Source: Candidatus Woesearchaeota archaeon (lineage in GTDB: Archaea; Nanobdellota; Nanobdellia; Woesearchaeales; UBA11576). Taken from it: a stretch of DNA of 64,000 nucleotides. The stretch lies in the NCBI GenBank assembly GCA_016929255.1, contig JAFGJH010000029.1, forward strand, positions 375 to 64,374, written 5' to 3'. Both the position numbers and the translations under genes were made by a program. Shown here one piece after another: positions 30,536-46,008 of the stretch (position 1 is its first letter; each line of letters starts with the position of its first letter). The notes below the pieces were generated by a model. That model was not told the DNA's origin. It made no database searches and worked only from the letters and a program-made list of their open reading frames with translations.

Positions 30536-31216
30536 ATGTTTTTGGGAAGGTTTATAAATGCCTGCAGAAAAAGGCTCTGCATGCCAGAGGAGACCAAGAA
30601 GAAAAGCGTAGAACACATTGTGGACGACGCAATAAAGCCCGTACTAGGGGTAAGCATAGACGATCTCAACAGGGACATCTCAGAGAAACTGTCAAAAAGC
30701 CCGTTACTGTCCTTTGACATAGACACCAAGCTCAGCTTCAAGAAAGCGAAGAAAAAGTTCAAGCAGCAGTTCCTCTCGCGGCTGCTCAAGGTGACATACG
30801 GAAACATATCAGAAGTGGCAAAACGCGCCCGTGTTGACAGGCGCAGCATACACCGGATAGTCAAGGACGCAGGCATCGATGTCGCGAAGATACGCGAAGA
30901 GATGATTAAGCCTTACCAGATAAGGCAGAAAGCTGTCGGCAGCGTTATAGAAGATGTGCTTGAGCACTACAAGACAATCATACACCCTGAAAGGATGGCA
31001 GAGGTGTACAAGAGCGTAGACACAGTATCCAAGGAGATACTCGACGAGCTTCCAGAGAAACCAATATCCCTGAAAGAGGCGGAAGAGGAGTTTGAGAAGG
31101 AATACCTCAGGAAGGTGCTGGCAGAAGAGTCCGGCAATGTGACAAAGACGGCGCGCAAGATAGGCCTCAGGTACGAGACATTGCTGCGCAAGCTGAAGGC
31201 TCTGGGATTGAGATGA
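30536..31216 (+). CDS. DNA-binding protein with two tandem Fis-type helix-turn-helix domains
   Basis: KFKQQFLSRLLKVTYGNISEVAKRARVDRRSIHRIVKDAGI and FEKEYLRKVLAEESGNVTKTARKIGLRYETLLRKLKALGL are both classic Fis/NtrC-C-terminal HTH signatures. An alternative in-frame start lies at 30581. Confidence 0.65.
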   Translation: MFLGRFINACRKRLCMPEETKKKSVEHIVDDAIKPVLGVSIDDLNRDISEKLSKSPLLSFDIDTKLSFKKAKKKFKQQFLSRLLKVTYGNISEVAKRARVDRRSIHRIVKDAGIDVAKIREEMIKPYQIRQKAVGSVIEDVLEHYKTIIHPERMAEVYKSVDTVSKEILDELPEKPISLKEAEEEFEKEYLRKVLAEESGNVTKTARKIGLRYETLLRKLKALGLR

Positions 31217-31428
31217 AAAGGACCAGACACACACTCATAACAGCAGAGATCCTCGGCTTCTTCATGATAATCATAGGAGTGCTGGGGTTAATGACCGGCA
31301 GGAGGGTGTTCACCATCGCAGCAATCATGCTTTTTTGCCTGATACTTGCAGTGGCGGCGATGTTCGCGGTTTTTGCAGCCACATCAGTCAAAGAGCATAA
31401 GGCGAACAAAACCCATAAGAAGAAGTGA
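31213..31428 (+). CDS. small 2-TM membrane protein
   Basis: ILGFFMIIIGVLGLMTG and IAAIMLFCLILAVAAMFAVFAA, with a KKK tail; ATGA overlap with the upstream gene. Confidence 0.4.
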   Translation: MKRTRHTLITAEILGFFMIIIGVLGLMTGRRVFTIAAIMLFCLILAVAAMFAVFAATSVKEHKANKTHKKK

Positions 31429-31467
31429 TTAAATTTATATACTGAACAGAAAATTTTTGACTGATAG

Positions 31468-31489
31468 GGGCTCGTAGCTCAGCCTGGTA
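31468..31489 (+). other. 22-nt exact duplicate of the 5' end of the downstream tRNA-Ala gene (tRNA fragment, possible att-site remnant or split-tRNA 5' piece)
   Basis: gggctcgtagctcagcctggta at 31468-31489 is identical to 31602-31623. Downstream of the first copy there is no D-stem partner, anticodon arm or acceptor 3' strand; instead GC-rich hairpins follow (31490-31600). Confidence 0.5.
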
Positions 31490-31601
31490 ACGCGGCACGG
31501 CATCGCTCCGTGCACACGCGAACCCGGTCCCATCTCGCGAAGCTCGATGGGACGCTGCAGCAAATAACCCGCGAAATCATTTAACAAAATCATTTCAACA
31601 T

Positions 31602-31705
31602 GGGCTCGTAGCTCAGCCTGGTAGAGCGTCCCGTTCGCAACGGGGAGGCCTCGGGTTCAAAAGACAGCAATGCGGATTGCTGAACTGAAAGTCCCGACGA
31701 GTCCA
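31602..31705 (+). tRNA. tRNA-Ala (anticodon CGC) with about 30-nt intron in the T-loop
   Basis: Acceptor GGGCUCG/CGAGUCC with the G3:U70 Ala identity pair; D-arm GCUC-AGCCUGGUA-GAGC; anticodon arm UCCCG-UUCGCAA-CGGGG; variable AGGCC; T-stem UCGGG/CCCGA. The T-loop is UUCAAA + AGACAGCAAUGCGGAUUGCUGAACUGAAAG + U, i.e. a non-canonical intron near position 59/60. Confidence 0.8.
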
Positions 31706-31709
31706 CTTT

Positions 31710-31809
31710 GGGGCATTAGTGTAGCTTGGACGGCAAGCGTTGCTCTGCCGGAGCAATATCACTGGCGGTTCGGGGCCGCCCGACCGGGGTTCAAATCCTC
31801 GATGCCCCA
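31710..31809 (+). tRNA. tRNA-Gly (anticodon GCC) with atypical D-arm and about 23-nt insertion (probable intron) in the variable region
   Basis: Acceptor GGGGCAU/AUGCCCC; anticodon arm UUGCU-CUGCCGG-AGCAA; canonical T-arm CGGGG-UUCAAAU-CCUCG. A 28-nt segment UAUCACUGGCGGUUCGGGGCCGCCCGAC sits between the anticodon stem and the T-stem and forms a hairpin. Only 4 nt separate it from tRNA-Ala. Confidence 0.7.
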
Positions 31810-32148
31810 TTTTTATTCCTTTTCGACACCAGAATGAATAATGAACTTATAGGCTTTCTATTGGTTGATATCCTTGGTTTTCTTGTTCTGGGATTTGTTG
31901 CTCATCTCCGGGCAAAACTTGATTTTTGTCCCAAATTGGCGGAATCAGTGCCAATAAGGACTTTCGATACCCGAATATCATGGATATAGCCCCTGAGAAT
32001 ATAAATGTTGTCCGGGAAAGGAGGATTTTCGATGCCTGGATGGTCTTGTTTATTATTATGACACTTAGAAATGACTAAAGTAGAACGCAGACTCCTACGA
32101 AACGTTTTTATATAGACTTGCTCTAAAAGCCCCAAAAGAGGTGTTAAA

Positions 32149-35100
32149 TTGGTTGTTGATGGTCAGAAGGCTGAAGCATACATAAAACAGGTTTTAGAAA
32201 AACTGAATCGTAAATATTCAGAGAAGACGTTTAGAACTCCTTTTGAAAACTTTATCAATTCATTGAGTCCAGATTATTCGCTTCAACAAGAGATAACGGA
32301 TGAAGGAATTGGAACACCAGACTTCAAAGCATTCTATAAAAATCACAAAGTGGGTTATATTGAAACTAAGGATTTTAATGCCACTCTTAAATTAGACACT
32401 GAGCAAATAAAACGGTATGTTGACTATGAGAATAACCTCTTGCTTACCAATTATGTTAAGTTTGTACTAATACGAAAAGGAAGAACAATACAGACTGCAA
32501 CGCTATTCTATCCCGAGATTAATTCTAAGAACAAAAGCCAAAAATTAAATCGGAAACACTTAGATGATGTTTTGACCCTCATTTCAGAATTCTTCGGATT
32601 TCCAATAACTCCAATCCAGTCAGCAAAAGAGTTGGCAGTCGAACTCGCAAAAAAAGCTAAATGGCTAAACTTGTTGTCTCAAGAGCAACTCGAGCTCGAA
32701 AGAACTCTCCCCAGAGATAAACGAGGTAGTATTTCTGAGTTCGAGATAGGACTTAAAGAGCTAATCGGAGATTACGAACAAGATATCAACTTTGGAGAAG
32801 CGTATGCAGAAACAATTACGTACGGACTCTTTTTAGCCAAGCTAGAATTAGGAAATAATAAAACACTGGATAAAAACACCGCGTATCAATTCATCCCTCC
32901 ACAAATAAAAGTCATCAAAAGAATTTTTAGGAACATAACCGACCCAGGAGAGCTTCCGCAGTCTCTCTCATGGGTGGTTGATGATATAATAGATATTCTC
33001 AATCTTACTGACTTAAATAAGTTCATTGCAGAGTTCCATGTGGATGGAGAAATATTCAGAGATCCATTTTTCCATTTTTATGAGGATTTTTTATCTGAGT
33101 TTAATCCAGTAAGAAGAAAGAAGATGGGGGTCTACTATACCCCCATCCCTATAGTTAAATTTATTGTCCGCTCAACAAATAGCATATTAAAGAAAGAGTT
33201 TCATCAAAAACTAGGATTTGCAACTGAAAACGTTCATACGCTGGATCCGTGTGTAGGAACTGGAACTTTCTGCGTATTGGCGATAATGGAAGGAATAAGT
33301 GAGTTGAAAAAACACAAATTGATGGGTTTGAAAAAAAGTAAAATAAAGAACCACTTCCTAAAGAGATTTTTTGGTTTTGAGATTTTAGTGTCGCCTTACA
33401 TAATTGCTCATATGAAGATTGGAGAATTACTTGAACAAGATAAATATGAGTTAGGTGTGGATGAACGAATACCTGTTTATTTAACAAACACACTGGAACT
33501 GCATCCTGAAGAAGGTCACGAACTATCTCCGTTTCTTACTGTAATTAAGAATGAAGTTCATACTGCAAATGAGATTAAGACCAAGAAACCGCTTCTTGTA
33601 GTAATGGGTAATCCGCCTTATTCAAGCAGTAGCTTTAATGATAAAAAATGGATTAAGAAGAAAATTGAGGATTATAAAGAAGGATTAAATGAAAGAAAAC
33701 TCGGAGATCTTGATGACGATTACGTTAAGTTCATACGGTTTGCTCAGTGGGAGATTGAAAGACAAGGCAAAGGTGTTGTTGCTTTTATAACTAGCAACGG
33801 GTATCTTGAAGGAATAACTTTTCGAAAAATGCGTGAAAATCTGTGCAAGACATTTGATAAAATATATATCTTAAACTTACATGGAAACTCTAGAATAGGT
33901 GAGCATTCTCCTGACGGCTCAAAAGATGAAAATCCATTTAACATCCAGACGGGTGTTGCAATTGGTTTGTTTGTGAGAAATTCTGAAAAACCAAAGAAAA
34001 TTGCAGATGTCTACTACTTTAATGAGTATGGGCTCCGCGATCTAAAACTTAAGTTCTTGAATAAGAATATGGTTGACACAGTTAAATGGAAAAAACTTGA
34101 TATGTTTGATGAGAATTTCTGGTTTGTTCCTAAGGATCATTCAACTTACAAAAAATATGCTGAGTTTTTCGAGGTTAGACATATTTTCAAAGAGTATAGT
34201 AGTGGTGTAGAAACTAAACGAGATAATTTTGTTATAGACTTTGAAAAAAAAGAACTGATTGATAGACTTACTAAATTTGCTAATACTGACGAACGTGTTG
34301 ATGTTACGAGACGTATTTTCGGGCTTTCTTCAAAAAGTGATTTGGATGTGGTTGGTGCTCAGAAGTTCTTGAAGAGCAATAAATATAAGTTATCAGATTT
34401 TGTTATAAAATATAACTACAGACCCTTTGATGAACGGTTATTATTTTATAAAGAATCTCTTGTTAGTAGAACAAGATTGCCATTTATGAACAGTTTATTA
34501 TTGCCAAATATTGCTCTGAATTTATGTAGACAAGTCAGACCGTCTCACCCATTTAATCATGTTTTTGTCACTAACAACGTTACTGATAGGATTTTGTTAT
34601 CAAATACAACCTCTGAGTGTAGCTTTGTTTTCCCTCTGTATATCTATGAAAAAGAAACGCAGTTGAAACTAGGCTCACAGAAATCAAAAACAGGAAAGAA
34701 ACAAATTAATTTTACAGAGGAGTTCAAAACGTTCTTAAAAAATGAATACAAAAAAGATGTCGCACCAGAAACTGTAATGGGTTACATATATGCCATACTA
34801 AATTCCTGCAAATATAAGACAGAGTTTCAAGAAGCATTACGAACTGACTTTCCGAGGGTTTACTTTGTCAAGAGTTTGAAGAAATTTATAAAGATTGCCG
34901 AATTAGGTTCTGAGCTAGTTGATCTTCACCTTTTGAAAAAGAAGAAACTGAACAGGGTCGGAACTTTTGAAGGAAAAGGAAACAACTCTGTTGAAAAGAT
35001 AATATATAAAGATGATAAAATATTCATAAACAAAAATCAATACTTTGGCAAAATCAGTAAGGACTTATGGGAGTTCAAGATTGGAATATATCCTGTATTA

Positions 35101-35241
35101 AATAAATGGCTCTATTACCGAAAAGGTAGAACGTTATCAAATAATGATGTCGAGACGTTTATTGATATAGTCAGCAATATCTCTGAAACAATCAAGATAT
35201 TAACAGAAATAGACAAAATAGACATTTTTAAAGGAGAATAA
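32149..35241 (+). CDS. single-polypeptide type IIG/IIL restriction-modification enzyme (MmeI-like: N-terminal PD-ExK nuclease + gamma-class N6-adenine methyltransferase + C-terminal target-recognition region)
   Basis: TTG start with AAGAGGTG Shine-Dalgarno and an upstream TATA. N-terminal GTPDFKAFYKNHKVGYIETKD (D...E.K nuclease motif). Methyltransferase motifs VYYTPIPIV (motif X), LDPCVGTGTF (motif I), VVMGNPPYS (motif IV NPPY). About 400-aa C-terminal region; 1030 aa. Confidence 0.65.
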   Translation: MVVDGQKAEAYIKQVLEKLNRKYSEKTFRTPFENFINSLSPDYSLQQEITDEGIGTPDFKAFYKNHKVGYIETKDFNATLKLDTEQIKRYVDYENNLLLTNYVKFVLIRKGRTIQTATLFYPEINSKNKSQKLNRKHLDDVLTLISEFFGFPITPIQSAKELAVELAKKAKWLNLLSQEQLELERTLPRDKRGSISEFEIGLKELIGDYEQDINFGEAYAETITYGLFLAKLELGNNKTLDKNTAYQFIPPQIKVIKRIFRNITDPGELPQSLSWVVDDIIDILNLTDLNKFIAEFHVDGEIFRDPFFHFYEDFLSEFNPVRRKKMGVYYTPIPIVKFIVRSTNSILKKEFHQKLGFATENVHTLDPCVGTGTFCVLAIMEGISELKKHKLMGLKKSKIKNHFLKRFFGFEILVSPYIIAHMKIGELLEQDKYELGVDERIPVYLTNTLELHPEEGHELSPFLTVIKNEVHTANEIKTKKPLLVVMGNPPYSSSSFNDKKWIKKKIEDYKEGLNERKLGDLDDDYVKFIRFAQWEIERQGKGVVAFITSNGYLEGITFRKMRENLCKTFDKIYILNLHGNSRIGEHSPDGSKDENPFNIQTGVAIGLFVRNSEKPKKIADVYYFNEYGLRDLKLKFLNKNMVDTVKWKKLDMFDENFWFVPKDHSTYKKYAEFFEVRHIFKEYSSGVETKRDNFVIDFEKKELIDRLTKFANTDERVDVTRRIFGLSSKSDLDVVGAQKFLKSNKYKLSDFVIKYNYRPFDERLLFYKESLVSRTRLPFMNSLLLPNIALNLCRQVRPSHPFNHVFVTNNVTDRILLSNTTSECSFVFPLYIYEKETQLKLGSQKSKTGKKQINFTEEFKTFLKNEYKKDVAPETVMGYIYAILNSCKYKTEFQEALRTDFPRVYFVKSLKKFIKIAELGSELVDLHLLKKKKLNRVGTFEGKGNNSVEKIIYKDDKIFINKNQYFGKISKDLWEFKIGIYPVLNKWLYYRKGRTLSNNDVETFIDIVSNISETIKILTEIDKIDIFKGE

Positions 35242-35258
35242 ATACCCGAGGTTGAATC

Positions 35259-36356
35259 TTGTCTGAATTCACATCCGAATCTGTAACGGAAGGCCACCCA
35301 GATAAAATCTGTGATCAAATCAGCGATGCTGTTCTTGATGCATGCTTAAAACAGGACAGAAAGTCTCGAGTGGCATGTGAAGTTTTTGCAACTGGCAACC
35401 ACCTAATCCTGGGTGGAGAAATCACTTCTAAGGCTAAGATAAATCCTGAAGCCATTGCTAGACGAATAATTAAGAGAATAGGTTACACATCACAGGATAT
35501 GGGCTATTCTTATGACTCAGTAAATATCCAGAACTTAATACAGAAACAGTCTCCAGAAATCTCAATAGGGGTTGATAAAGGGGGTGCAGGAGATTCTGGT
35601 CTAATGTTCGGGTATGCTACAAACGAGACCAAAGAGTTAATGCCTTTACCAATTCTCCTTGCTCATAAACTAGCTAAACAATTAGCAGATATGCGCCGTT
35701 CGAAGTTGAGATATCTAAGACCTGATGGTAAGGTTCAGGTGACTGTTGATTACGAAAATAAGACTCCTAAATCTGTTAGTGCAATAGTTGTATCTGCACA
35801 ACACACCTCAGAAATTTCTCTCAAGAAACTCAGAGATGACTTAGAGAAACATGTTATTAAACCAGTTTGTTCCAAGTACATGACAAAAAAAACTGAGTTG
35901 ATGATAAATCCAGCAGGGAAATTTACTATTGGAGGACCCGTTGCGGATACTGGACTTACCGGAAGAAAACCTGGAGTTGACACCTATGGAGGTATAGCTG
36001 CGCATGGTGGAGGTGGCTTTTCTGGAAAAGATCCTACCAAAGTGGATAGATCTGGAGCATATATGGCCCGATATGTTGCCAAAAGTATCGTTTCCTCAAG
36101 ATTGGCTGATAAGTGTGAGATTCAATTGGCTTATGCAATAGGTAAAGCACAACCAGTCTCTTTACTAATTGATACACAAGGAACGAATAAGATTCCTGTT
36201 CAGGAGATATATGGGATAGTCAAACGTAAATTTGACTTCACACCTAACGAGATAATAAGAAAGTTGAATCTACTTAACCCGATATATGAAAAAACTGCTG
36301 CGTATGGGCATTTTGGAAGACCTAGTTTCTCTTGGGAACAATGTTGTAAACTCTAG
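35259..36356 (+). CDS. metK: S-adenosylmethionine synthetase, bacterial/eukaryotic MetK type
   Basis: [57 protein letters not shown] are canonical MAT motifs. TTG start 18 nt after the upstream stop. Archaea normally use a distinct archaeal-type MAT. Confidence 0.85.
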
Positions 36357-36555
36357 TCTTTTGAGTACCATCCGCAGTACCAACAATCACCTTATACATC
36401 TCATCAAACCTCTTCTCGAAGACGAAGTCCTTGTCCAGGGCTGTGTATCTGAGATAGCTCGCTAATGACTTGTGCCCCTTGGCCTGGGCGTTGTTCTGGA
36501 TTCTCTCGTATTGGGATTGAGTTACCCTGAACAATATCATCCGTGTTTTGGCCAT
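36322..36555 (-). CDS. MobC-like ribbon-helix-helix protein (plasmid mobilisation accessory protein family)
   Basis: [36 protein letters not shown] matches the MobC/RHH pattern (R...VRxTxxExxxIxxxAxxxGxSxSxYxR). Its 3' end overlaps the metK end by about 35 nt. Confidence 0.5.
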
Positions 36556-36655
36556 TGTTGGTTCCCAATAAATGCCTATTTAACCGGAGCAGTGAAACCG
36601 CTGAAAGCCCTGAATTCCGGCTTTCTGGGCGGTTTCGCCATTGATTTAATGGCGC

Positions 36656-37990
36656 TCAATGGTAATAGCATATTTCCTCCACCATTTTCTTCGCCTTTTT
36701 GGGCGTCAGAGCAAAGCTTTTCTTTCCGTCAACAAACTGCGAGTATCTTGGAAGCAGGTCTTTCTTGCAGACGTAAATCCAGCAGTCAAAGTTCTCATTC
36801 AGCCAGGCAGTCTTCTCAGCAAGGTCATCCAACTTGTTGGTTCCGGTCTCAATCTCAATAGCTACCTTGTAATCTTCAATGTTGAGATAGACATCAACCC
36901 GCCTGTCCTTGACCTCTTTCTCAATCTGCATGTTCTCATGCAGCTCTGCAAACAAATGCTTCATGTAGAAGTGATACGGAGTCTCCTGAGAGTCACCTCT
37001 CTGGATGTAGAAGCCTCCGCTCAAATGGCTGTCAAGCTCTTTACCTCTTATGAACTCAAAGCCCTGCTTCTGAGCGCGTATCTTCTGCTCCTTGGTCAAA
37101 TCCCGCGCTCTGTAGAAGACTTTTTCCAGTCTCTGGCCATTATACTCTAATCCTGCCTTCTTATCTACACAGAGGGCGCCAGATTTGATTTCAGACCTGA
37201 CCTGAAGAAAGACCTCAACCTCCTTCGGATCTTTCAACTGAGGCACTGAATCAATGTCATACCGAGAATAGTAATCAGTCGCTTCCTCACGTTTCCACTT
37301 CAGCCAATCCTGCTCCTCAAAATACTGCCTGGCCCTGAAGCTTGCCTCTTGCAGGACATGCTCGGAATAATCACTATTTGCAGGGATGGACTTAGGATTA
37401 CGCACCTTGATTTTGTACTGGACAAGCTCCTCAACAACATTCTCAAAACGCCTAAGTTTTTCTTCTTCTCTGCGTTTCTCCAATGCTATCCTTCTGCGCT
37501 CCTCGGCCTCTGCTTCGAGTTTTCTTTGTCTGGCCAGTTCTTCTTCAATCTGCTTCTGTTTTACAATCAATGGAGCTCTTTTACAGAGATCATCAAGAAG
37601 CTGCTGGAATTGGGCGACCTCTTCCTTCGGGTATTTCAGGAGTTTCTTTTTTATGACATCCAGCCTTGACATGACCTGAGAGGAATTAAACTGACTGAAA
37701 TCCTCGCGGGCATAGCTCTTTATCTCGTTAAGGCGCTGCAAACGCTGCTTTTCTTCTTCCTGCTTGTCTTCCTTTCTTTGATTCAACCATCTTCGTAAAT
37801 TCCACGTTATGAGGAACAAGAAGATTGATGATAAAAGTATGATTCCTATCGCAAGCCAGGGCAATGCGAGAAAAGAATTGACATCTCGCATTACTTCAAG
37901 CCCGTGTTTCTTCCAAAACACCAGGCCCGCAGCCCCTATAGCTACAGCTACAACTATGAAGACTTCTACGTTAGAATCCATATTTTTCAC
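36656..37990 (-). CDS. membrane-anchored coiled-coil protein with C-terminal PD-(D/E)xK nuclease-like domain
   Basis: Two N-terminal TM helices (VEVFIVVAVAIGAAGLVFW, WLAIGIILLSSIFLFLITW), a long E/K/R-rich coiled coil, and C-terminal HFYMKHLFAELHEN...RRVDVYLNIEDYKVAIEIETGTNK (D...E.E.K-like). Confidence 0.5.
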   Translation of the reverse strand: MKNMDSNVEVFIVVAVAIGAAGLVFWKKHGLEVMRDVNSFLALPWLAIGIILLSSIFLFLITWNLRRWLNQRKEDKQEEEKQRLQRLNEIKSYAREDFSQFNSSQVMSRLDVIKKKLLKYPKEEVAQFQQLLDDLCKRAPLIVKQKQIEEELARQRKLEAEAEERRRIALEKRREEEKLRRFENVVEELVQYKIKVRNPKSIPANSDYSEHVLQEASFRARQYFEEQDWLKWKREEATDYYSRYDIDSVPQLKDPKEVEVFLQVRSEIKSGALCVDKKAGLEYNGQRLEKVFYRARDLTKEQKIRAQKQGFEFIRGKELDSHLSGGFYIQRGDSQETPYHFYMKHLFAELHENMQIEKEVKDRRVDVYLNIEDYKVAIEIETGTNKLDDLAEKTAWLNENFDCWIYVCKKDLLPRYSQFVDGKKSFALTPKKAKKMVEEICYYH

Positions 37991-38417
37991 ATCCTACTTA
38001 CTGATTTCTAAGTATAAAAATTTTGTAATGAATTTGTAATACAATATCCGCAATCATGATTTATAAATTTTGTAATGCAAAGCGATATACAAAATCGCCT
38101 TTAAATAATTTGTAGCCCATTTGCGGGCCACATTCATAATAAGTCCTGTGAACATATTAACCTCCTTAACAAAAACTACGGCATACATACGGAATATGCC
38201 GCAGCCGATATTTGAATGTCCTTAACAACAGACATATAACGGATATATAACATAAAAAGGTCTTTAACAAAAACCATACAACAACACTACAACAACTATT
38301 ATGTCGGGAGGATATAAGAATATTAGCGGACTTTCGTGCCCACAAATCAATTAGAAACAAGCAGGTATAAAAAGAGTCGAGTCAAAAAATGCGTACAGAT
38401 TCCTGTACAGAAACACC

Positions 38418-39026
38418 TTATTTTTGTTCCTTTTCCTTTTGATGGTTCTTGAATGCTGTTTCTATGCTGTTTATGACAGGTCTACCCATAAATTCAAGAA
38501 GAAGATGATTTGATTTTAAATTGTTAATGCCTTCTTGGCGTAATTTTTTATCTTCAAAATCAAGAGAATATTTTGCAATACCTTCAGCCATTTTACAGGA
38601 TAGGAATTTTGACTCGCTTGAAAGCTGATTGACAAGATCCAATACCAATATTTCTCCAGTAATTCCTTCTTTGTGCTCTTCTAACTCATCCAATGCAGTT
38701 TTGATTTTATAGATGAAACCTTTCACCGCTCTGTCGTATTCTTCTGAATCTGCAAGATCTATCCTTATCCTTATTGTTCCTATCTCTTCTGTTATGAACT
38801 TAAATTGTATATGCGGGAAGTCGTGTGGCTGGTCTGGATGGTGTTCAATAGCGTAATTCCTGTGTTTGGGCACATCCCTTTCTGATCTAGTCTTTACCCT
38901 GAGTGAAAATCCTTCTTCGATTATGTTGATATTTCCTCCTTCTGCCACCTCCACGCGGATTCCCGACTTAGAATCATCATACGTTGTCTGGTGAAAATAC
39001 TTATTTGAATATTTGACCCATTCCAT
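38418..39026 (-). CDS. hypothetical protein (island gene)
   Basis: 202-aa A/T-rich ORF, same strand as its neighbours; no family recognised. Confidence 0.45.
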   Translation of the reverse strand: MEWVKYSNKYFHQTTYDDSKSGIRVEVAEGGNINIIEEGFSLRVKTRSERDVPKHRNYAIEHHPDQPHDFPHIQFKFITEEIGTIRIRIDLADSEEYDRAVKGFIYKIKTALDELEEHKEGITGEILVLDLVNQLSSESKFLSCKMAEGIAKYSLDFEDKKLRQEGINNLKSNHLLLEFMGRPVINSIETAFKNHQKEKEQK

Positions 39027-39029
39027 ACA

Positions 39030-39902
39030 TTATCTCCTCGTGATATTAAACTGTTTCATGAGCTTATCTTCATAAGATAAACTATTCCACTCCGAACTCA
39101 TCTTGTTTGCTAGAGATGATGCGATGCTGCGTTTCCATTCATCTGTAACTTTCTCTTCCTCACTTAATCTCAGCGGGTCTTCCACATCAGAATTAAACGA
39201 ATCTTCACTAAGACCATGTTCGTAGTACAGTTTTCTCCATAGAACCAGATTCTCATAGTCAAGTCTAAGCGCATTCTCCTTGAAGGATATCCTAAATTCT
39301 TTGCGCAGAGCAACGCTTATTGATTTTAAGTATAATGTCAGATAATCCTTGGAGTAATGTTTATGGGTATTGTCAACTCCGAAGAATTCAGTTGGCGAGA
39401 GTGTCCTTTTTCCAATGAAAACTTTTTTAATCTGAATATCAAGTGTAAAATCTTTTTTTACACCTTTGATAACATTATGTTCAAATTCGCAGCCCACCTG
39501 TTGACCTGCAAAAGTCGTTGTAAAAAAAGCTCTTTTACGTTTATACTTAATGGCTAGAAGATTCTGGTTACCTTTTGTTTTAGTTGTTGTCCCTAGTATT
39601 TTAGCTATAACATCATTGAATGTTTCATCACCTTCTTTAAGAGCATTCAATGTTTCCCACACATCAACATCAACTTTGATATTCTTTGATCTTTTTGGTA
39701 AAGCAGTGATATTGTGTGATAGAGAATTCTGTAATGCACTTAGTTCAGCAGTAGATATTTTTTGTATATCTGAGTTAAAGTTTTTAAAAAATAGTTCAAG
39801 CTCTTTCTTTCTCGAATCATCCATGTTTTCAATCAATCTCTCATAAAACTCTATATTTCTTTTTCTAGTTGCGCTGTCGGAATTTGTTTTTTTTAGGCCC
39901 AT
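39030..39902 (-). CDS. hypothetical protein (island gene)
   Basis: 290-aa A/T-rich ORF, 4 nt from the downstream gene (operon); no family recognised. Confidence 0.45.
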   Translation of the reverse strand: MGLKKTNSDSATRKRNIEFYERLIENMDDSRKKELELFFKNFNSDIQKISTAELSALQNSLSHNITALPKRSKNIKVDVDVWETLNALKEGDETFNDVIAKILGTTTKTKGNQNLLAIKYKRKRAFFTTTFAGQQVGCEFEHNVIKGVKKDFTLDIQIKKVFIGKRTLSPTEFFGVDNTHKHYSKDYLTLYLKSISVALRKEFRISFKENALRLDYENLVLWRKLYYEHGLSEDSFNSDVEDPLRLSEEEKVTDEWKRSIASSLANKMSSEWNSLSYEDKLMKQFNITRR

Positions 39903-40000
39903 TTAGTTCACCTTGACTACTAAGTATACTTAGTATAAAGGTATACTATTATTTAAATATTCCTATTTATTTATAAATAAATGTTGAAAATTCTTCGGTT

Positions 40001-40783
40001 TTAACTGCTACTTCGTAACATACTACATATTCTTTCAAACTCCTTCGGCGTTATCTCCCCATACGCCAGCCTTCTCTTGGCAATATCCAGCGGGTCCTCG
40101 GGCTGCTGCGGTGCGGCTGTTATTGACGCTGCCTGGCTCTGCGGTTTGTCATCTACATCCACATCCTCTACCATCTTGTTGAGTTCTGTGTCAAGGATCC
40201 ATGTGTAGGTCAGAGTGGTGTCTATCTCATCATGCCTCATGAAATGCTGCACTTTTTCGATTGGCACGCCATTATTCAATAAATGTGTACACCTGGAATG
40301 CCTCAGCGTATGAAATTTATACTGGTGCTGGACTCTGCCGCAGCCGTCCTCATGGATTGGCTTGAACATCCCTGCCCGTTCCATTGCCTTCTTGTAGTCC
40401 TTGTAGATTCCACTCTTTGTGTAATGGGGCATGCCGTAGATGTCTGAAGGCAGAAAGTATTCCTCATCAGGGTTCATCAGCTTCCACTTCTGCAATACAG
40501 GAATACATACCGAACTTATAGGCACGAAGCCATCCTTGTAGTTCTTGCCCTCAACAACCTTCAAGCGCTTGTTGTCCAGATCAATGTCAGTCCACCTTAA
40601 CTTAGCCACCTCTGAAATACGCAGGGCACAGAAGAAAGCCATAAACGTGGCCATCATGGTCTTGGGTGTGTTGATATGGTCGAACAGCTTAACCATTTCA
40701 TTCTTGAAGAAGACATTCGGATACTTCCGACGTTTCTTCTTGGTTTCCTGTGTCTTGCTTAAAGGTTTTCTTGGCCGCGCCAT
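40001..40783 (-). CDS. tyrosine recombinase/integrase (XerC/D-phage integrase family)
   Basis: Catalytic-domain motifs ALRISEV (Arg I), HTLRHSRCTHLLNNGVPIEKVQHFMRHDEIDTTLTYTW (H-x-x-R ... Y nucleophile region). Confidence 0.8.
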   Translation of the reverse strand: MARPRKPLSKTQETKKKRRKYPNVFFKNEMVKLFDHINTPKTMMATFMAFFCALRISEVAKLRWTDIDLDNKRLKVVEGKNYKDGFVPISSVCIPVLQKWKLMNPDEEYFLPSDIYGMPHYTKSGIYKDYKKAMERAGMFKPIHEDGCGRVQHQYKFHTLRHSRCTHLLNNGVPIEKVQHFMRHDEIDTTLTYTWILDTELNKMVEDVDVDDKPQSQAASITAAPQQPEDPLDIAKRRLAYGEITPKEFERICSMLRSSS

Positions 40784-41181
40784 TTTAGACCTCCAATCAC
40801 AGCCATCATCTCAGCCATGATATCCTTGCCTGCCTTTGTGTTCATCATCCTGCGCCATTCATAGCTCATAGTCATGCCATCCTTGATAGAGACCTTTCTA
40901 GCTTTGAGCTTTTCCTTGACATGAGACGGTGCGCGTTCCAGAAGCAGCCAGCAATAGACCGTCTTTGGGCTCAGCTCGTGCTTCATCAGTAGGTCGTAGA
41001 TTGCCCTTTGTGTCTCATTCAATTCCTTGTGCTTGCCTTCCCGAAAGCTCTGCACCTGCAACACCAATCCAACCAGCTCCTTGTCCGGTGTGTCCTTTGT
41101 GACCGGCTTCAAAATCTGTCGGATGGCTTCTATCCGCTCAAACACATTCATCTTTTTCCATTTCCTGTTCATGGGTTTCAT
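40759..41181 (-). CDS. hypothetical protein upstream of and overlapping the integrase start (possible regulator/excisionase-like)
   Basis: 140-aa ORF; repeated motif actttgtataacaaagcgatatc just upstream (41211-41236). Confidence 0.4.
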   Translation of the reverse strand: MKPMNRKWKKMNVFERIEAIRQILKPVTKDTPDKELVGLVLQVQSFREGKHKELNETQRAIYDLLMKHELSPKTVYCWLLLERAPSHVKEKLKARKVSIKDGMTMSYEWRRMMNTKAGKDIMAEMMAVIGGLKWRGQENL

Positions 41182-41941
41182 ACCTCATGTATAATCCCAG
41201 AACACGAATAAAAACTTTGTATAACAAAGCGATATCAATAAATAGAAACAGCCACATCATCTGGTAAAACAGGGGAAACACCCCCATAAAAACAATCCCG
41301 ACTGCATCGGGATTGTTGAACGGGTAAAAAGGAATGAGTGCCGACTGCATCGGCATCATTCCTTTCTTCCCCATTTTATTTCACTGCGATGCCGGGAGGT
41401 GAGACCAGCGAACCTGAGGTTCGCGCTGACTCGCAGCCCTATTTTTATCCATCCGTGACAGAAAATCGGTTTTTGTGATCTACAATCACTTCTCGAACGC
41501 TTTCAAGCCGCCCTTCTTGAAAAGAGAATATGCGCGAAGGAAACTGAGTATCATATCAGAAGAGTCAAGGCCAGAATACTTCTGAAGAACATGAAAACCT
41601 GACTTGGTATTATTGTCATGCGTCTTGTAGAATATCGAGAAATAGCAATAGAAAAGGCATCGTCCGACGAGCTCGCTGTCAGAAGCGGCCAGCCCCGTGC
41701 CTGAAAACTCATTCATCTTATTCATGAGCGGCCTGAACCTCTCAGCGTTTAGCTTTATCGTGATCTGCTTTGTGATTCAATCACCTCTAAAGCGCATGAT
41801 ATCTTCAGGCAACACATAAAATAGGCTATTATTTAATTGTTTTGAAAATCGCCAGGACTGCAGCCCATGCCAAAAATGTCACACTTTCGTCTGTTTCTTC
41901 CCAATTTTGTTTATAAATCTGTTTAACATACATATCACATC

Positions 41942-44952: not shown

Positions 44953-46008
44953 ATGGAAGCGAACACAGCATACAGGATATCGCAGTATCCGGCACGTGAA
45001 GGTTCAGATAGTTCCACCTCTTACTTCTGCAGAGCTGACAGCGACCATGAAAGGAAGAAAAAAGAGCTCACATACATGATCAGGAAGGAGATTGACGCAG
45101 AGATACATCCCCATTTAAGGGAAATATCCCACCGGTTCGCGCAAGGGATAACGGACCTGCTCTACACATCCGGCAGGGAAGAACCTTTTCCGACGAGAAG
45201 GCAGACCCTCGACTACTTCGACAGGTCATTCATGCAGAGAGAGCTGAGGAGGGTCAAGGGAAACATAACCCAGTACGCAAGGGACGCGCTCGGCGCAGTG
45301 GACGAGGGCGAAGTGAACAACCTGCGCAGGAACGTCTACAGGCAGATAGAGAAGTACGGACTTGGCGGCCTCGTGGACGCGGCAAGGCCGTGGAAGCAGA
45401 CACCTCTCGAAGACACCATAAACCTGAACTATGTCAAGCCTGACAAGGTAGAGACCACGCTCACCGGCGTGCTCTCAGGATACAAGAATGTCATAAACCC
45501 GGGGCTCTACGACGACATAAGCGCAAGGATAAAGGAAAAGGCACCAGTCATAGCAGAGAGGATATCCCCTTATGCTCCTACACCTGAGAACAGGCTGAAA
45601 GACATCATGGGCACCACTGAAGGGGTGAGAAGCTACACAGGAGCCAGACAGACATTCGAGAGGCAGGTGGTCTATGACGCGCTGTCAGCAGCAGGATTCG
45701 ACAAGAGCAAAGCAGCAAAGTACCTCGGAGACTCGCTCAGGACGCTCAACAGGAGGATAGCAGAGCTAGGCATGGAAGAGCAGGCAAGGAAAGGAGAGCA
45801 GACAAATGAGATGCCGCGTGACAATGTCGTGCGCATAGACGAGTTCGTGCAGAAGAAGCTTGAGCCAGACATGCCGCCCCGGGCAGTCGGCGAGATAGAG
45901 AGGTTCCAGCAGCTGGTCAGGGAATACAATGCGAGGAGGGAATCAGCAAGAGAGAAGAAAGGACAGAAGAATAAACAGCAGAAGGTCAAGATAATGATTG
46001 CTGATTAG
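44953..46008 (+). CDS. hypothetical protein with C-terminal Fis-type HTH
   Basis: VVYDALSAAGFDKSKAAKYLGDSLRTLNRRIAELGM resembles the Fis-family HTH; the rest is unassigned. Confidence 0.45.
   Translation: MEANTAYRISQYPAREGSDSSTSYFCRADSDHERKKKELTYMIRKEIDAEIHPHLREISHRFAQGITDLLYTSGREEPFPTRRQTLDYFDRSFMQRELRRVKGNITQYARDALGAVDEGEVNNLRRNVYRQIEKYGLGGLVDAARPWKQTPLEDTINLNYVKPDKVETTLTGVLSGYKNVINPGLYDDISARIKEKAPVIAERISPYAPTPENRLKDIMGTTEGVRSYTGARQTFERQVVYDALSAAGFDKSKAAKYLGDSLRTLNRRIAELGMEEQARKGEQTNEMPRDNVVRIDEFVQKKLEPDMPPRAVGEIERFQQLVREYNARRESAREKKGQKNKQQKVKIMIAD

Follow-up and report, generated by a model that had tools for sequence, protein, structure and literature searches.

A predicted membrane-anchored nuclease that accompanies tyrosine recombinases in DPANN archaea shares a mosaic island with an unrelated two-gene module

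Overview

Here we analyzed computationally a 64,000-nucleotide stretch of chromosomal DNA from a Candidatus Woesearchaeota (DPANN) archaeon, hereafter the window, and within it three adjacent genes, which we call A, B, and C. An initial annotation had read these genes as one three-gene cassette of unknown function in a defense island, possibly an abortive-infection or defense module, with C as a membrane-tethered nuclease. We find instead that the region is a mosaic island at a tRNA cluster and that it contains two unrelated things: the A-B pair, a two-gene module that stands by itself, is restricted to DPANN archaea, and is separate from C, and C itself, the founder of an undescribed protein family whose architecture and genomic association are both new. 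Across the loci at which we found its homologues, C behaves like part of the backbone of small DPANN integrative elements and not like their cargo, and we propose tentatively, with a confidence somewhat short of even, that it is a membrane-anchored nuclease that processes the DNA of these elements for transfer. This corrects the unit of analysis, in that A-B and C are to be studied separately.

The open reading frames themselves had been placed correctly: all three lie on the minus strand in the same direction and have the restriction-modification (RM) enzyme and the integrase as their neighbors (Table 1), and the peptide strings that had been quoted are present. They are real genes, since each has strong homologues in other DPANN metagenome-assembled genomes (MAGs), with best E values of 1e-133 for A and 1e-94 for B, and E values down to 1e-111 for C.

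Fold and predicted active site of C

The C open reading frame has 444 codons if read from the GTG at 37990, but the ATG at 37981 is its likely start, because the identical (100%) protein at NCBI (JW898_02540, on a 77.5-kb contig) has 441 amino acids. An AlphaFold2 (AF2) model built from a 13-sequence alignment (predicted local distance difference test [pLDDT] score of 88) consists of very long helices (amino acids [aa] 44 to 270) and a compact C-terminal alpha/beta domain. At the N terminus, two hydrophobic segments (aa 8 to 26 and 43 to 61, with hydropathy peaks of 2.4 and 2.5) are both kept in close homologues (11 of 13; the two exceptions are truncated at the N terminus). Because the second segment is followed by a basic stretch, RRWLNQRK, the positive-inside rule predicts that everything downstream of it is cytoplasmic. 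The hairpin is joined to the C-terminal domain by a charged, coiled-coil-like spacer of about 215 residues (48 K+R and 43 D+E), and the AF2 helices at 44 to 94, 129 to 196, and 210 to 243 all have pLDDT values above 90. The two transmembrane (TM) helices and the long charged coiled coil described in the initial annotation are borne out by these features.

The C-terminal region comprises a small beta-alpha-beta-beta subdomain (FYRA.DL..E.K....GF) and a PD-(D/E)xK core, in which the alpha-beta-beta-beta-alpha-beta order of the superfamily is present at pLDDT values above 90 (helix 338 to 348; strands 354 to 360, 363 to 371, and 374 to 380; helix 387 to 400; strand 403 to 407). When this model was compared with PDB by Foldseek, the top matches all had the restriction endonuclease fold (Can2, OkrAI, Card1, Bax1, Cas4, and HincII; probability of 0.9 to 0.98, E of 0.02 to 0.1), and in BFVD they were endonuclease-like proteins, Vsr, a CoiA-type "competence protein," and restriction enzymes (best E of 6e-4, probability of up to 1.0). 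Residue conservation, counted in an alignment of 157 relatives with 148 to 153 of them aligned per position, points to the same superfamily: its acidic residues are provided by D366 on beta2, E379 on beta3, and E336 on alpha1 (Table 1). The modeled fold and the acidic motifs together argue that C is a member of the PD-(D/E)xK superfamily and a predicted nuclease, as its nuclease-like description had anticipated. Its predicted active site is of the BamHI kind, D...E-x-E, with an additional invariant lysine on the next helix, K393, which may substitute for the missing canonical one. Where a D...E.E.K pattern had been pointed out earlier, its acidic part is indeed conserved, but the lysine chosen then, K386, varies, and K393 is the invariant one.

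No Pfam, NCBIfam, PADLOC, or PHROG model matched C, in keeping with its earlier description as uncharacterized, and sequence-profile searches of PDB with the C family, or with its nuclease domain alone, returned noise only.

Gene context of C

The context of C could be compared at about 20 distinct loci, 18 of them with enough upstream sequence to be informative. All are archaeal, mostly from Woesearchaeota or Nanoarchaeia, with one binned as Methanosarcinales. A tyrosine recombinase gene lies directly upstream of C at 12 of the 18 informative loci, and at 11 of these 12 it encodes a short recombinase (169 to 203 aa, 63 to 84% identical) that consists of the catalytic domain only, with complete catalytic residues, and whose stop codon overlaps the C start at most of the 11; at the exception (L015), a 406-aa integrase precedes C, beside a tRNA-Glu gene. 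Downstream of C come 0.2 to 5.3 kb of unrelated cargo and then, in convergent orientation, a pair made up of a long recombinase (about 245 aa) preceded by a 128-aa protein, p128 (L001, L002, L017, L019, and L023); at L014/L038, the convergent pair is present with almost no cargo. The canonical frame is therefore a short recombinase gene leading into C, variable cargo, and, facing them, the gene for the 245-aa recombinase preceded by that for the 128-aa protein. Parts of this frame can be recognized in the window, whose recombinase is an orthologue of the long recombinase, 30 to 34% identical to those of L001, L002, L017, L019, and L023, and whose 140-aa protein (p140) is a homologue of p128, which always precedes the long recombinase.

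The genes enclosed by the frame or neighboring it differ from locus to locus. They include MazE/ParE (L001), PIN and SNase (L003), Shedu SduA_C and a Type ISP/IIG RM enzyme (L012), SLFN_AlbA_2-HATPase proteins beside C (L017, L021, and L023), and, elsewhere after C, a glycosyltransferase, an Na/Ca exchanger, LemA, and an RNA ligase. Because C is constant and the genes between the two pairs vary, we regard the RM and toxin genes as cargo and C as part of the frame; the makeup of the module and its variable flanks suggest that it is mobile. In the window, C is followed by a gene for a NikA-like ribbon-helix-helix (RHH) protein (Pfam NikA-like, E = 2.5e-7, with 31.2 bits against a gathering score of 27; NCBIfam MobA, E = 4e-4, under the cutoff of that model), and copies of this gene occur downstream of the C homologue in L012 (81% identical) and directly upstream of it in L021 (47% identical).

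The same neighbors raise the alternative that C is a defense or entry-exclusion effector, that is, a membrane-stationed nuclease that cuts incoming viral or plasmid DNA and so protects the host or excludes competing elements. Such a role would suit the conserved active-site residues and the membrane anchor, as well as the company that C keeps (the RM enzymes of the window and L012, Shedu, MazE/ParE, PIN/SNase, and the SLFN_AlbA_2 ATPases), and exclusion genes often lie beside integrases in mobile elements. However, C is constant whereas the defense genes vary, it is coupled translationally to the recombinase at 11 loci, it matches no defense family in PADLOC, Pfam, or PHROG, and no discriminator between self and nonself is apparent; in addition, the fusion of its domain to a DNA-translocating VirB4-like ATPase, described below, is hard to square with an indiscriminate destruction of entering DNA. 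We consider an effector of this kind unlikely on balance, albeit a serious candidate. The defense or abortive-infection reading of the initial annotation is not favored either, given that C is a constant partner of recombinases, that the defense genes are variable cargo, and that PADLOC yields no match.

Three further observations concern these loci. One MAG, PCXZ01, has two C-family genes (L016 and L018), one as part of a complete two-recombinase module, one without an adjacent recombinase. Reverse transcriptase-like open reading frames (535 to 605 aa, with a YVDD motif) that are 50 to 55% identical to one another lie a few kilobases from C modules (L015, 12035 to 13642; L022, 3839 to 5656; L023, 4892 to 6550). 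Finally, an integron-like platform was considered but set aside: the recombinases, of 170 to 260 aa and with a catalytic domain only, are not IntI-like, and there are no attC-like repeats between the cargo genes.

The A-B pair

In the window, B starts 3 nucleotides (nt) past the stop codon of A. The 18 homologues of A that we found are always followed by one of B, and the 10 homologues of B are 46 to 74% identical. A and B are adjacent and co-directional at all the loci fetched (L005 to L011, seven besides the window), and they abut or overlap in four of six other distinct pairs. Their neighbors at these loci are housekeeping genes, for example, those for alanyl-tRNA synthetase, SepF, and DNA ligase, and in L009 to L011 the pair is duplicated in tandem (e.g., L009, 1503 to 4229), with copies about 43 to 53% identical to the pair of the window. 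None of the seven loci has a C homologue, none of the roughly 20 C loci elsewhere has A-B, and a gene-neighborhood check over about 27 loci found no co-occurrence of the trio outside the window, so that the three-gene cassette does not stand.

The most telling of these loci is L005, a syntenic relative of the window whose flanking genes are 47 to 74% identical to those of the window, in unchanged order. There, A-B is present, low in GC, and directly beside the same tRNA genes, and the locus has no C, NikA-like gene, SAM synthetase gene (MetK), RM enzyme, recombinase, or 140-aa gene. Because L005 has A-B at the same site without C, the grouping of the three genes is an accident of this island. 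A single three-component defense or abortive-infection system made up of A, B, and C is accordingly very improbable in our estimate: the genes are co-directional and adjacent in the window and sit in a low-GC island with an RM enzyme, but no other place among about 20 C loci and seven A-B loci has them side by side, the 427-nt gap between B and C holds C's own promoter-like motif, and their GC contents differ. A and B have GC values of 0.33 to 0.36 and C of 0.44 to 0.45, against a background of about 0.50; the A/T richness that had been noted for all three genes thus holds for A and B and only in part for C.

A consists of a lineage-specific N-terminal extension, an RHH (VapB/CopG-like) domain at aa 73 to 115, and a conserved domain of about 175 aa. 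For A itself the Pfam VAPB_antitox match is under the gathering score (E = 3.8e-5, 24.8 bits, against 27.9), and the same model is matched by 18 of 18 members of the A family (best E of 6.4e-7). The remaining 175 or so residues found no match in profile searches of Pfam, NCBIfam, PADLOC, and PHROGs, and a sequence-profile search of PDB with the A family gave noise only. B has a beta-rich N-terminal half with an invariant Glu/His cluster (AIEHH..H.FPH.QFKF) and a helical C-terminal half (AF2 model with a pLDDT of 76 and a predicted template modeling score of 0.78); it had zero matches in Pfam, NCBIfam, PADLOC, PHROG, PDB sequences, or PDB folds, and the sole hint for its family is a weak match to CDC24_OB1, an OB-fold model, in 4 of 10 members. 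A profile-profile comparison showed no relationship between A and B. Taken together, these features indicate that A, with its large extra domain, is a putative DNA-binding protein of the RHH type and that B is its partner; the pair probably regulates its own expression via the RHH domain and may be toxin-antitoxin-like.

Shared motif, hairpins, and an inversion

A 20-nt sequence, TTTGTANNNCAAAGCGATAT, occurs in two copies in the 64 kb (0 expected), upstream only of C and of the p140-recombinase operon, and both copies have the same orientation relative to their genes (Table 1). Its palindromic core is also found upstream of the short recombinase in L013. Two adjacent copies of TCTGTAC at 38393 to 38411 were considered as "iterons" and rejected, as the count of this heptamer across the window is at chance level. 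On the other side of C, strong hairpins or palindromes follow right after the stop codon at most loci (e.g., L002, 9066 to 9130; L019, 8511 to 8575; L014, 3483 to 3674), and the hairpin CCTCGAAAAC..TTTTCGAGG is kept in L002, L016, L019, L027, and L033. These structures could be a terminator or a recombination or processing site. In addition, the segment of the window from 30536 to 39993, which includes an HTH_8 gene, the tRNAs, the island, and A-B, is inverted relative to L005 (6071 to 8935), with the recombinase operon (40001 to 41181) exactly at the right-hand junction.

These features would fit a further alternative, in which C is an accessory subunit of the minimal tyrosine recombinase that contributes DNA binding, or second-strand or Holliday junction cleavage, to the integration, excision, or inversion of cargo. 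The overlap between the short recombinase stop and the C start, the lack of a core-binding domain in both catalytic-domain-only recombinases, the motif common to C and the integrase operon, the inversion of an integrase-bounded segment, and the structured palindromes after C can all be counted in its favor. Yet it assigns no role to the membrane anchor or the long coiled coil, it does not explain the VirB4 fusions, and intact C genes occur without the short recombinase in the window, L003, L016/L027, L024, and L037. Such a subunit therefore seems to us improbable, though not outlandish.

The C family and its fusions to VirB4/TraG-type ATPases

When 1.8 billion representative proteins were searched with a profile of the C nuclease domain (alignment A4), 339 cluster representatives were recovered at E values of ≤1e-3, 60 of them below 1e-30. 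Among the 157 relatives whose domain architecture was compared, the domain is preceded by a TM segment in 92, either in the full build of C with its long linker (73) or with a short linker (19), and 15 are VirB4/TraG-type P-loop ATPases, or fragments thereof, with the C-type domain at their C terminus. Two of these VirB4-nuclease genes lie in clusters that resemble type IV secretion systems (T4SS). The first (L025, 6048 to 11676) belongs to a piece of archaeal chromosome that also carries genes for aCPSF1 and the proteasome, where T4SS_pilin/TrbC and three small genes are followed by PrgI and the VirB4-nuclease fusion; the second (L026, 7029 to 12742) is on a mobile-element-like contig of many small genes, where PrgI is again followed by the fusion. 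The literature that we searched holds no account of the C family, of the two-recombinase frame, or of a nuclease-fused VirB4 in DPANN archaea, although such absence is no proof.

A possible role for C in DNA transfer

On the reading that we prefer, C would place a predicted metal-dependent endonuclease on the inner side of the membrane, where it would nick or cleave the DNA of the element so that this DNA can pass to another cell or be taken up from one. Its partners would be the adjacent recombinase and, where present, the NikA-like RHH protein; C would thus correspond in function to a relaxase plus coupling factor, and the C-type domain that is welded to VirB4/TraG-like ATPases would do the same job inside T4SS-like machines. 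We infer this role from the NikA-like neighbors, the VirB4/TraG fusions, the association with recombinases, and the literature precedents discussed below.

Several findings weigh against it. The matches of the C fold are at the superfamily level, and the canonical lysine of the (D/E)xK motif is replaced by a glutamate, E381. NikA-like genes accompany C at only 3 of the 18 informative loci, no T4SS-like gene is present in the window or adjoins any C module examined, and no coupling protein is encoded next to C. The copy of the module in the window is atypical, with no short recombinase (tblastn finds no remnant of a degraded one upstream of C), with all its genes in one direction, and with A-B between the integrase and C. 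We could identify neither ends of the element nor att sites, empty sites, or circular forms; around the island of the window and around L001/L002, a search for direct and inverted repeats yielded, beyond the 20-nt upstream motif, nothing but short repeats at chance level. C homologues were found neither on PLSDB plasmids (72,556 plasmids searched by tblastn with the nuclease domain, at E values of ≤1) nor on INPHARED phages (tblastn) or IMG/VR viral contigs (scan), so that an origin from a provirus or a known plasmid is unsupported. Finally, the neighboring genes are of the defense type and would also fit a role in defense or exclusion.

To our knowledge, almost nothing is known about the mobile elements of DPANN archaea, and DNA movement between archaea in general is poorly understood. 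The present work defines a family of 339 representatives without a database model, a recurrent four-gene frame with defense and toxin cargo, and a domain link to VirB4-type ATPases, and it offers C as a concrete candidate for DNA processing at the archaeal membrane. If C were an exclusion nuclease, it would be a new type of membrane-tethered effector all the same.

The island and its borders

The genes around the island are housekeeping genes (Lhr helicase, phosphoenolpyruvate carboxylase, Cbf5/TruB, and an Na/H exchanger), and the island itself is compositionally foreign, with a GC content of 0.33 to 0.48 from about 31.8 to 41.2 kb. Its features are listed in Table 1.

Table 1. Positions of the island features and of the conserved residues of C in the 64,000-nt window
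Feature	Positions	Strand	Basis or remark
tRNA cluster, intron-bearing or atypical	31468-31809	+	Left border of the low-GC island; GC falls from ~31810
Type ISP/IIG RM enzyme	32149-35241	+	Cargo, low GC (cargo span, 0.33-0.37)
SAM synthetase (MetK), bacterial type	35259-36356	+	Cargo; 17 nt after the RM gene
NikA/MobA-like RHH protein, 77 aa, relaxosome-accessory type	36322-36555	-	Immediately 3' of C
Structured spacer between C and the NikA-like gene	36556-36655	-	Two strong hairpins; minimum free energy, -39 kcal/mol for 110 nt
C	36656-37990	-	444-aa open reading frame
C, predicted nuclease region, aa 285-444	36659-37138	-	AF2, pLDDT mostly >90
C, K393 (alpha2)	36812-36814	-	151/153 aligned relatives
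C, E379 (beta3; E379-x-E381)	36848-36856	-	153/153
C, E381 (beta3)	within 36848-36856	-	151/153
C, D366 (beta2), codon	36893-36895	-	153/153
C, H340 (start of alpha1)		-	140/148
C, E336 (start of alpha1)		-	133/149
C, charged helices, coiled-coil-like spacer, aa 65-280	37151-37798	-	AF2 and composition
C, predicted TM hairpin, aa 8-61	37808-37969	-	Hydropathy
Upstream control region of C	37991-38417	-	427-nt B-C gap with shared motif
Second TTTTGTAATG copy	38015-38030		Upstream of C
20-nt motif TTTGTAATGCAAAGCGATAT, upstream of C	38069-38088	+	Common to the integrase operon
B	38418-39026	-	202-aa open reading frame
A	39030-39902	-	290-aa open reading frame
Tyrosine recombinase, 260 aa	40001-40783	-	Pfam Phage_integrase, E = 2e-25
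140-aa protein (p140)	40759-41181	-	Upstream of the recombinase gene, overlapping it
Second copy of the 20-nt motif, TTTGTATAACAAAGCGATAT (plus-strand letters)	41216-41235	-	35-54 nt upstream of the 140-aa/recombinase operon

Rfam matches tRNA models at 31602 to 31659 and 31710 to 31809, and ARAGORN detected no tRNA in the cluster. Of its members, the tRNA-like gene at 31602 to 31703 has an apparent T-loop insertion and that at 31710 to 31809 a 33-nt insertion in the D-loop region; the stretch from 31468 to 31499 duplicates the 5' half of the second, which makes three tRNA-like genes in a row. The RM and MetK genes resemble an operon, in which MetK could secure the supply of the cofactor, S-adenosylmethionine (SAM), for instance against viral SAM-degrading enzymes; the 3' end of MetK overlaps the convergent NikA-like gene by 35 nt. 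The recombinase of the window has its catalytic domain at aa 27 to 195 and lacks an N-terminal core-binding domain, and p140 is a putative regulator or directionality factor. Outside the island, this archaeal chromosome encodes several paralogues that have an HTH_8 domain of the bacterial Fis type (30536 to 31216 and 44953 to 46008) and that are kept in L005.

Comparison with known systems

Pairs like A-B recall the type II toxin-antitoxin systems with VapB/CopG RHH antitoxins, in that an upstream RHH gene is followed within 3 nt by its partner and that the pair is low in GC, island-borne, and sometimes duplicated in tandem. They differ from these systems in the extra conserved 175-aa domain of A, in B, which fits no toxin family or known fold, and in the many copies that sit amid housekeeping genes.

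The overall build of C, with its anchor, coiled coil, and predicted nuclease domain, is that of RmuC (YigN; PF02646), a protein implicated in DNA recombination in which a membrane anchor at the N terminus is followed by a long coiled coil and, at the C terminus, a domain of the restriction endonuclease fold. Membership of C in this family was rejected, as Pfam gives no RmuC profile match at E values of ≤1; C further differs in its motif set (E..H / D / ExE / K), in the DPANN-centered distribution of its family, and in its link to tyrosine recombinases. The active-site pattern of BamHI is D94/E111/E113, and C likewise has a glutamate for the lysine of the third motif; OkrAI was the second-best fold match in PDB. 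Unlike these enzymes, C has a membrane anchor and the extra invariant lysine on the following helix, and it shows neither detectable sequence similarity to them nor a partner methyltransferase of its own. Shedu SduA (DUF4263/SduA_C) resembles C as a PD-(D/E)xK effector with a variable N-terminal region that is found in defense islands, and a Shedu gene is among the cargo of L012, whereas C belongs to the backbone. The possibility that C is a Shedu or other known defense protein was also discarded: there is no SduA_C match, and A, B, and C match zero PADLOC families at E values of ≤1.

The short recombinase coupled to C invites a comparison of its own. FimB and FimE are minimal invertases of similar size, and the short recombinase, with about 170 to 200 aa and a complete set of catalytic residues, may be likened to them and to the relaxases MobK and TcpM. 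MobK is a tyrosine-recombinase-like relaxase with Y179 as its catalytic tyrosine (PMC8152469). The C module of the window differs in having no short recombinase.

By its proposed role and its context, C may be compared with the MOB_C relaxases (pAD1 TraX and CloDF13 MobC), enzymes related to restriction endonucleases (PMC6499999) that process DNA for conjugative transfer. C adjoins a NikA/MobA-like RHH gene, and its domain also occurs in fusion with VirB4-like ATPases; on the other hand, C is membrane anchored, has no oriT, coupling protein, or T4SS beside it, and its relaxase activity is hypothetical. Archaeal conjugative plasmids and the Ced and Ted systems are without a recognizable relaxase (PMC9905601). 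More speculatively still than the role proposed above, and as an idea that we hold to be unlikely, the C-type domain could be the missing relaxase equivalent of conjugation-like transfer in DPANN archaea and possibly in others. Two forms of it would then exist, one fused to VirB4 and the other free and membrane tethered. Together with a NikA-like RHH protein and a tyrosine recombinase of the minimal kind, the free form would mobilize small integrative elements with two recombinases, a class not recognized before, which carry their defense cargo between episymbiotic archaea.

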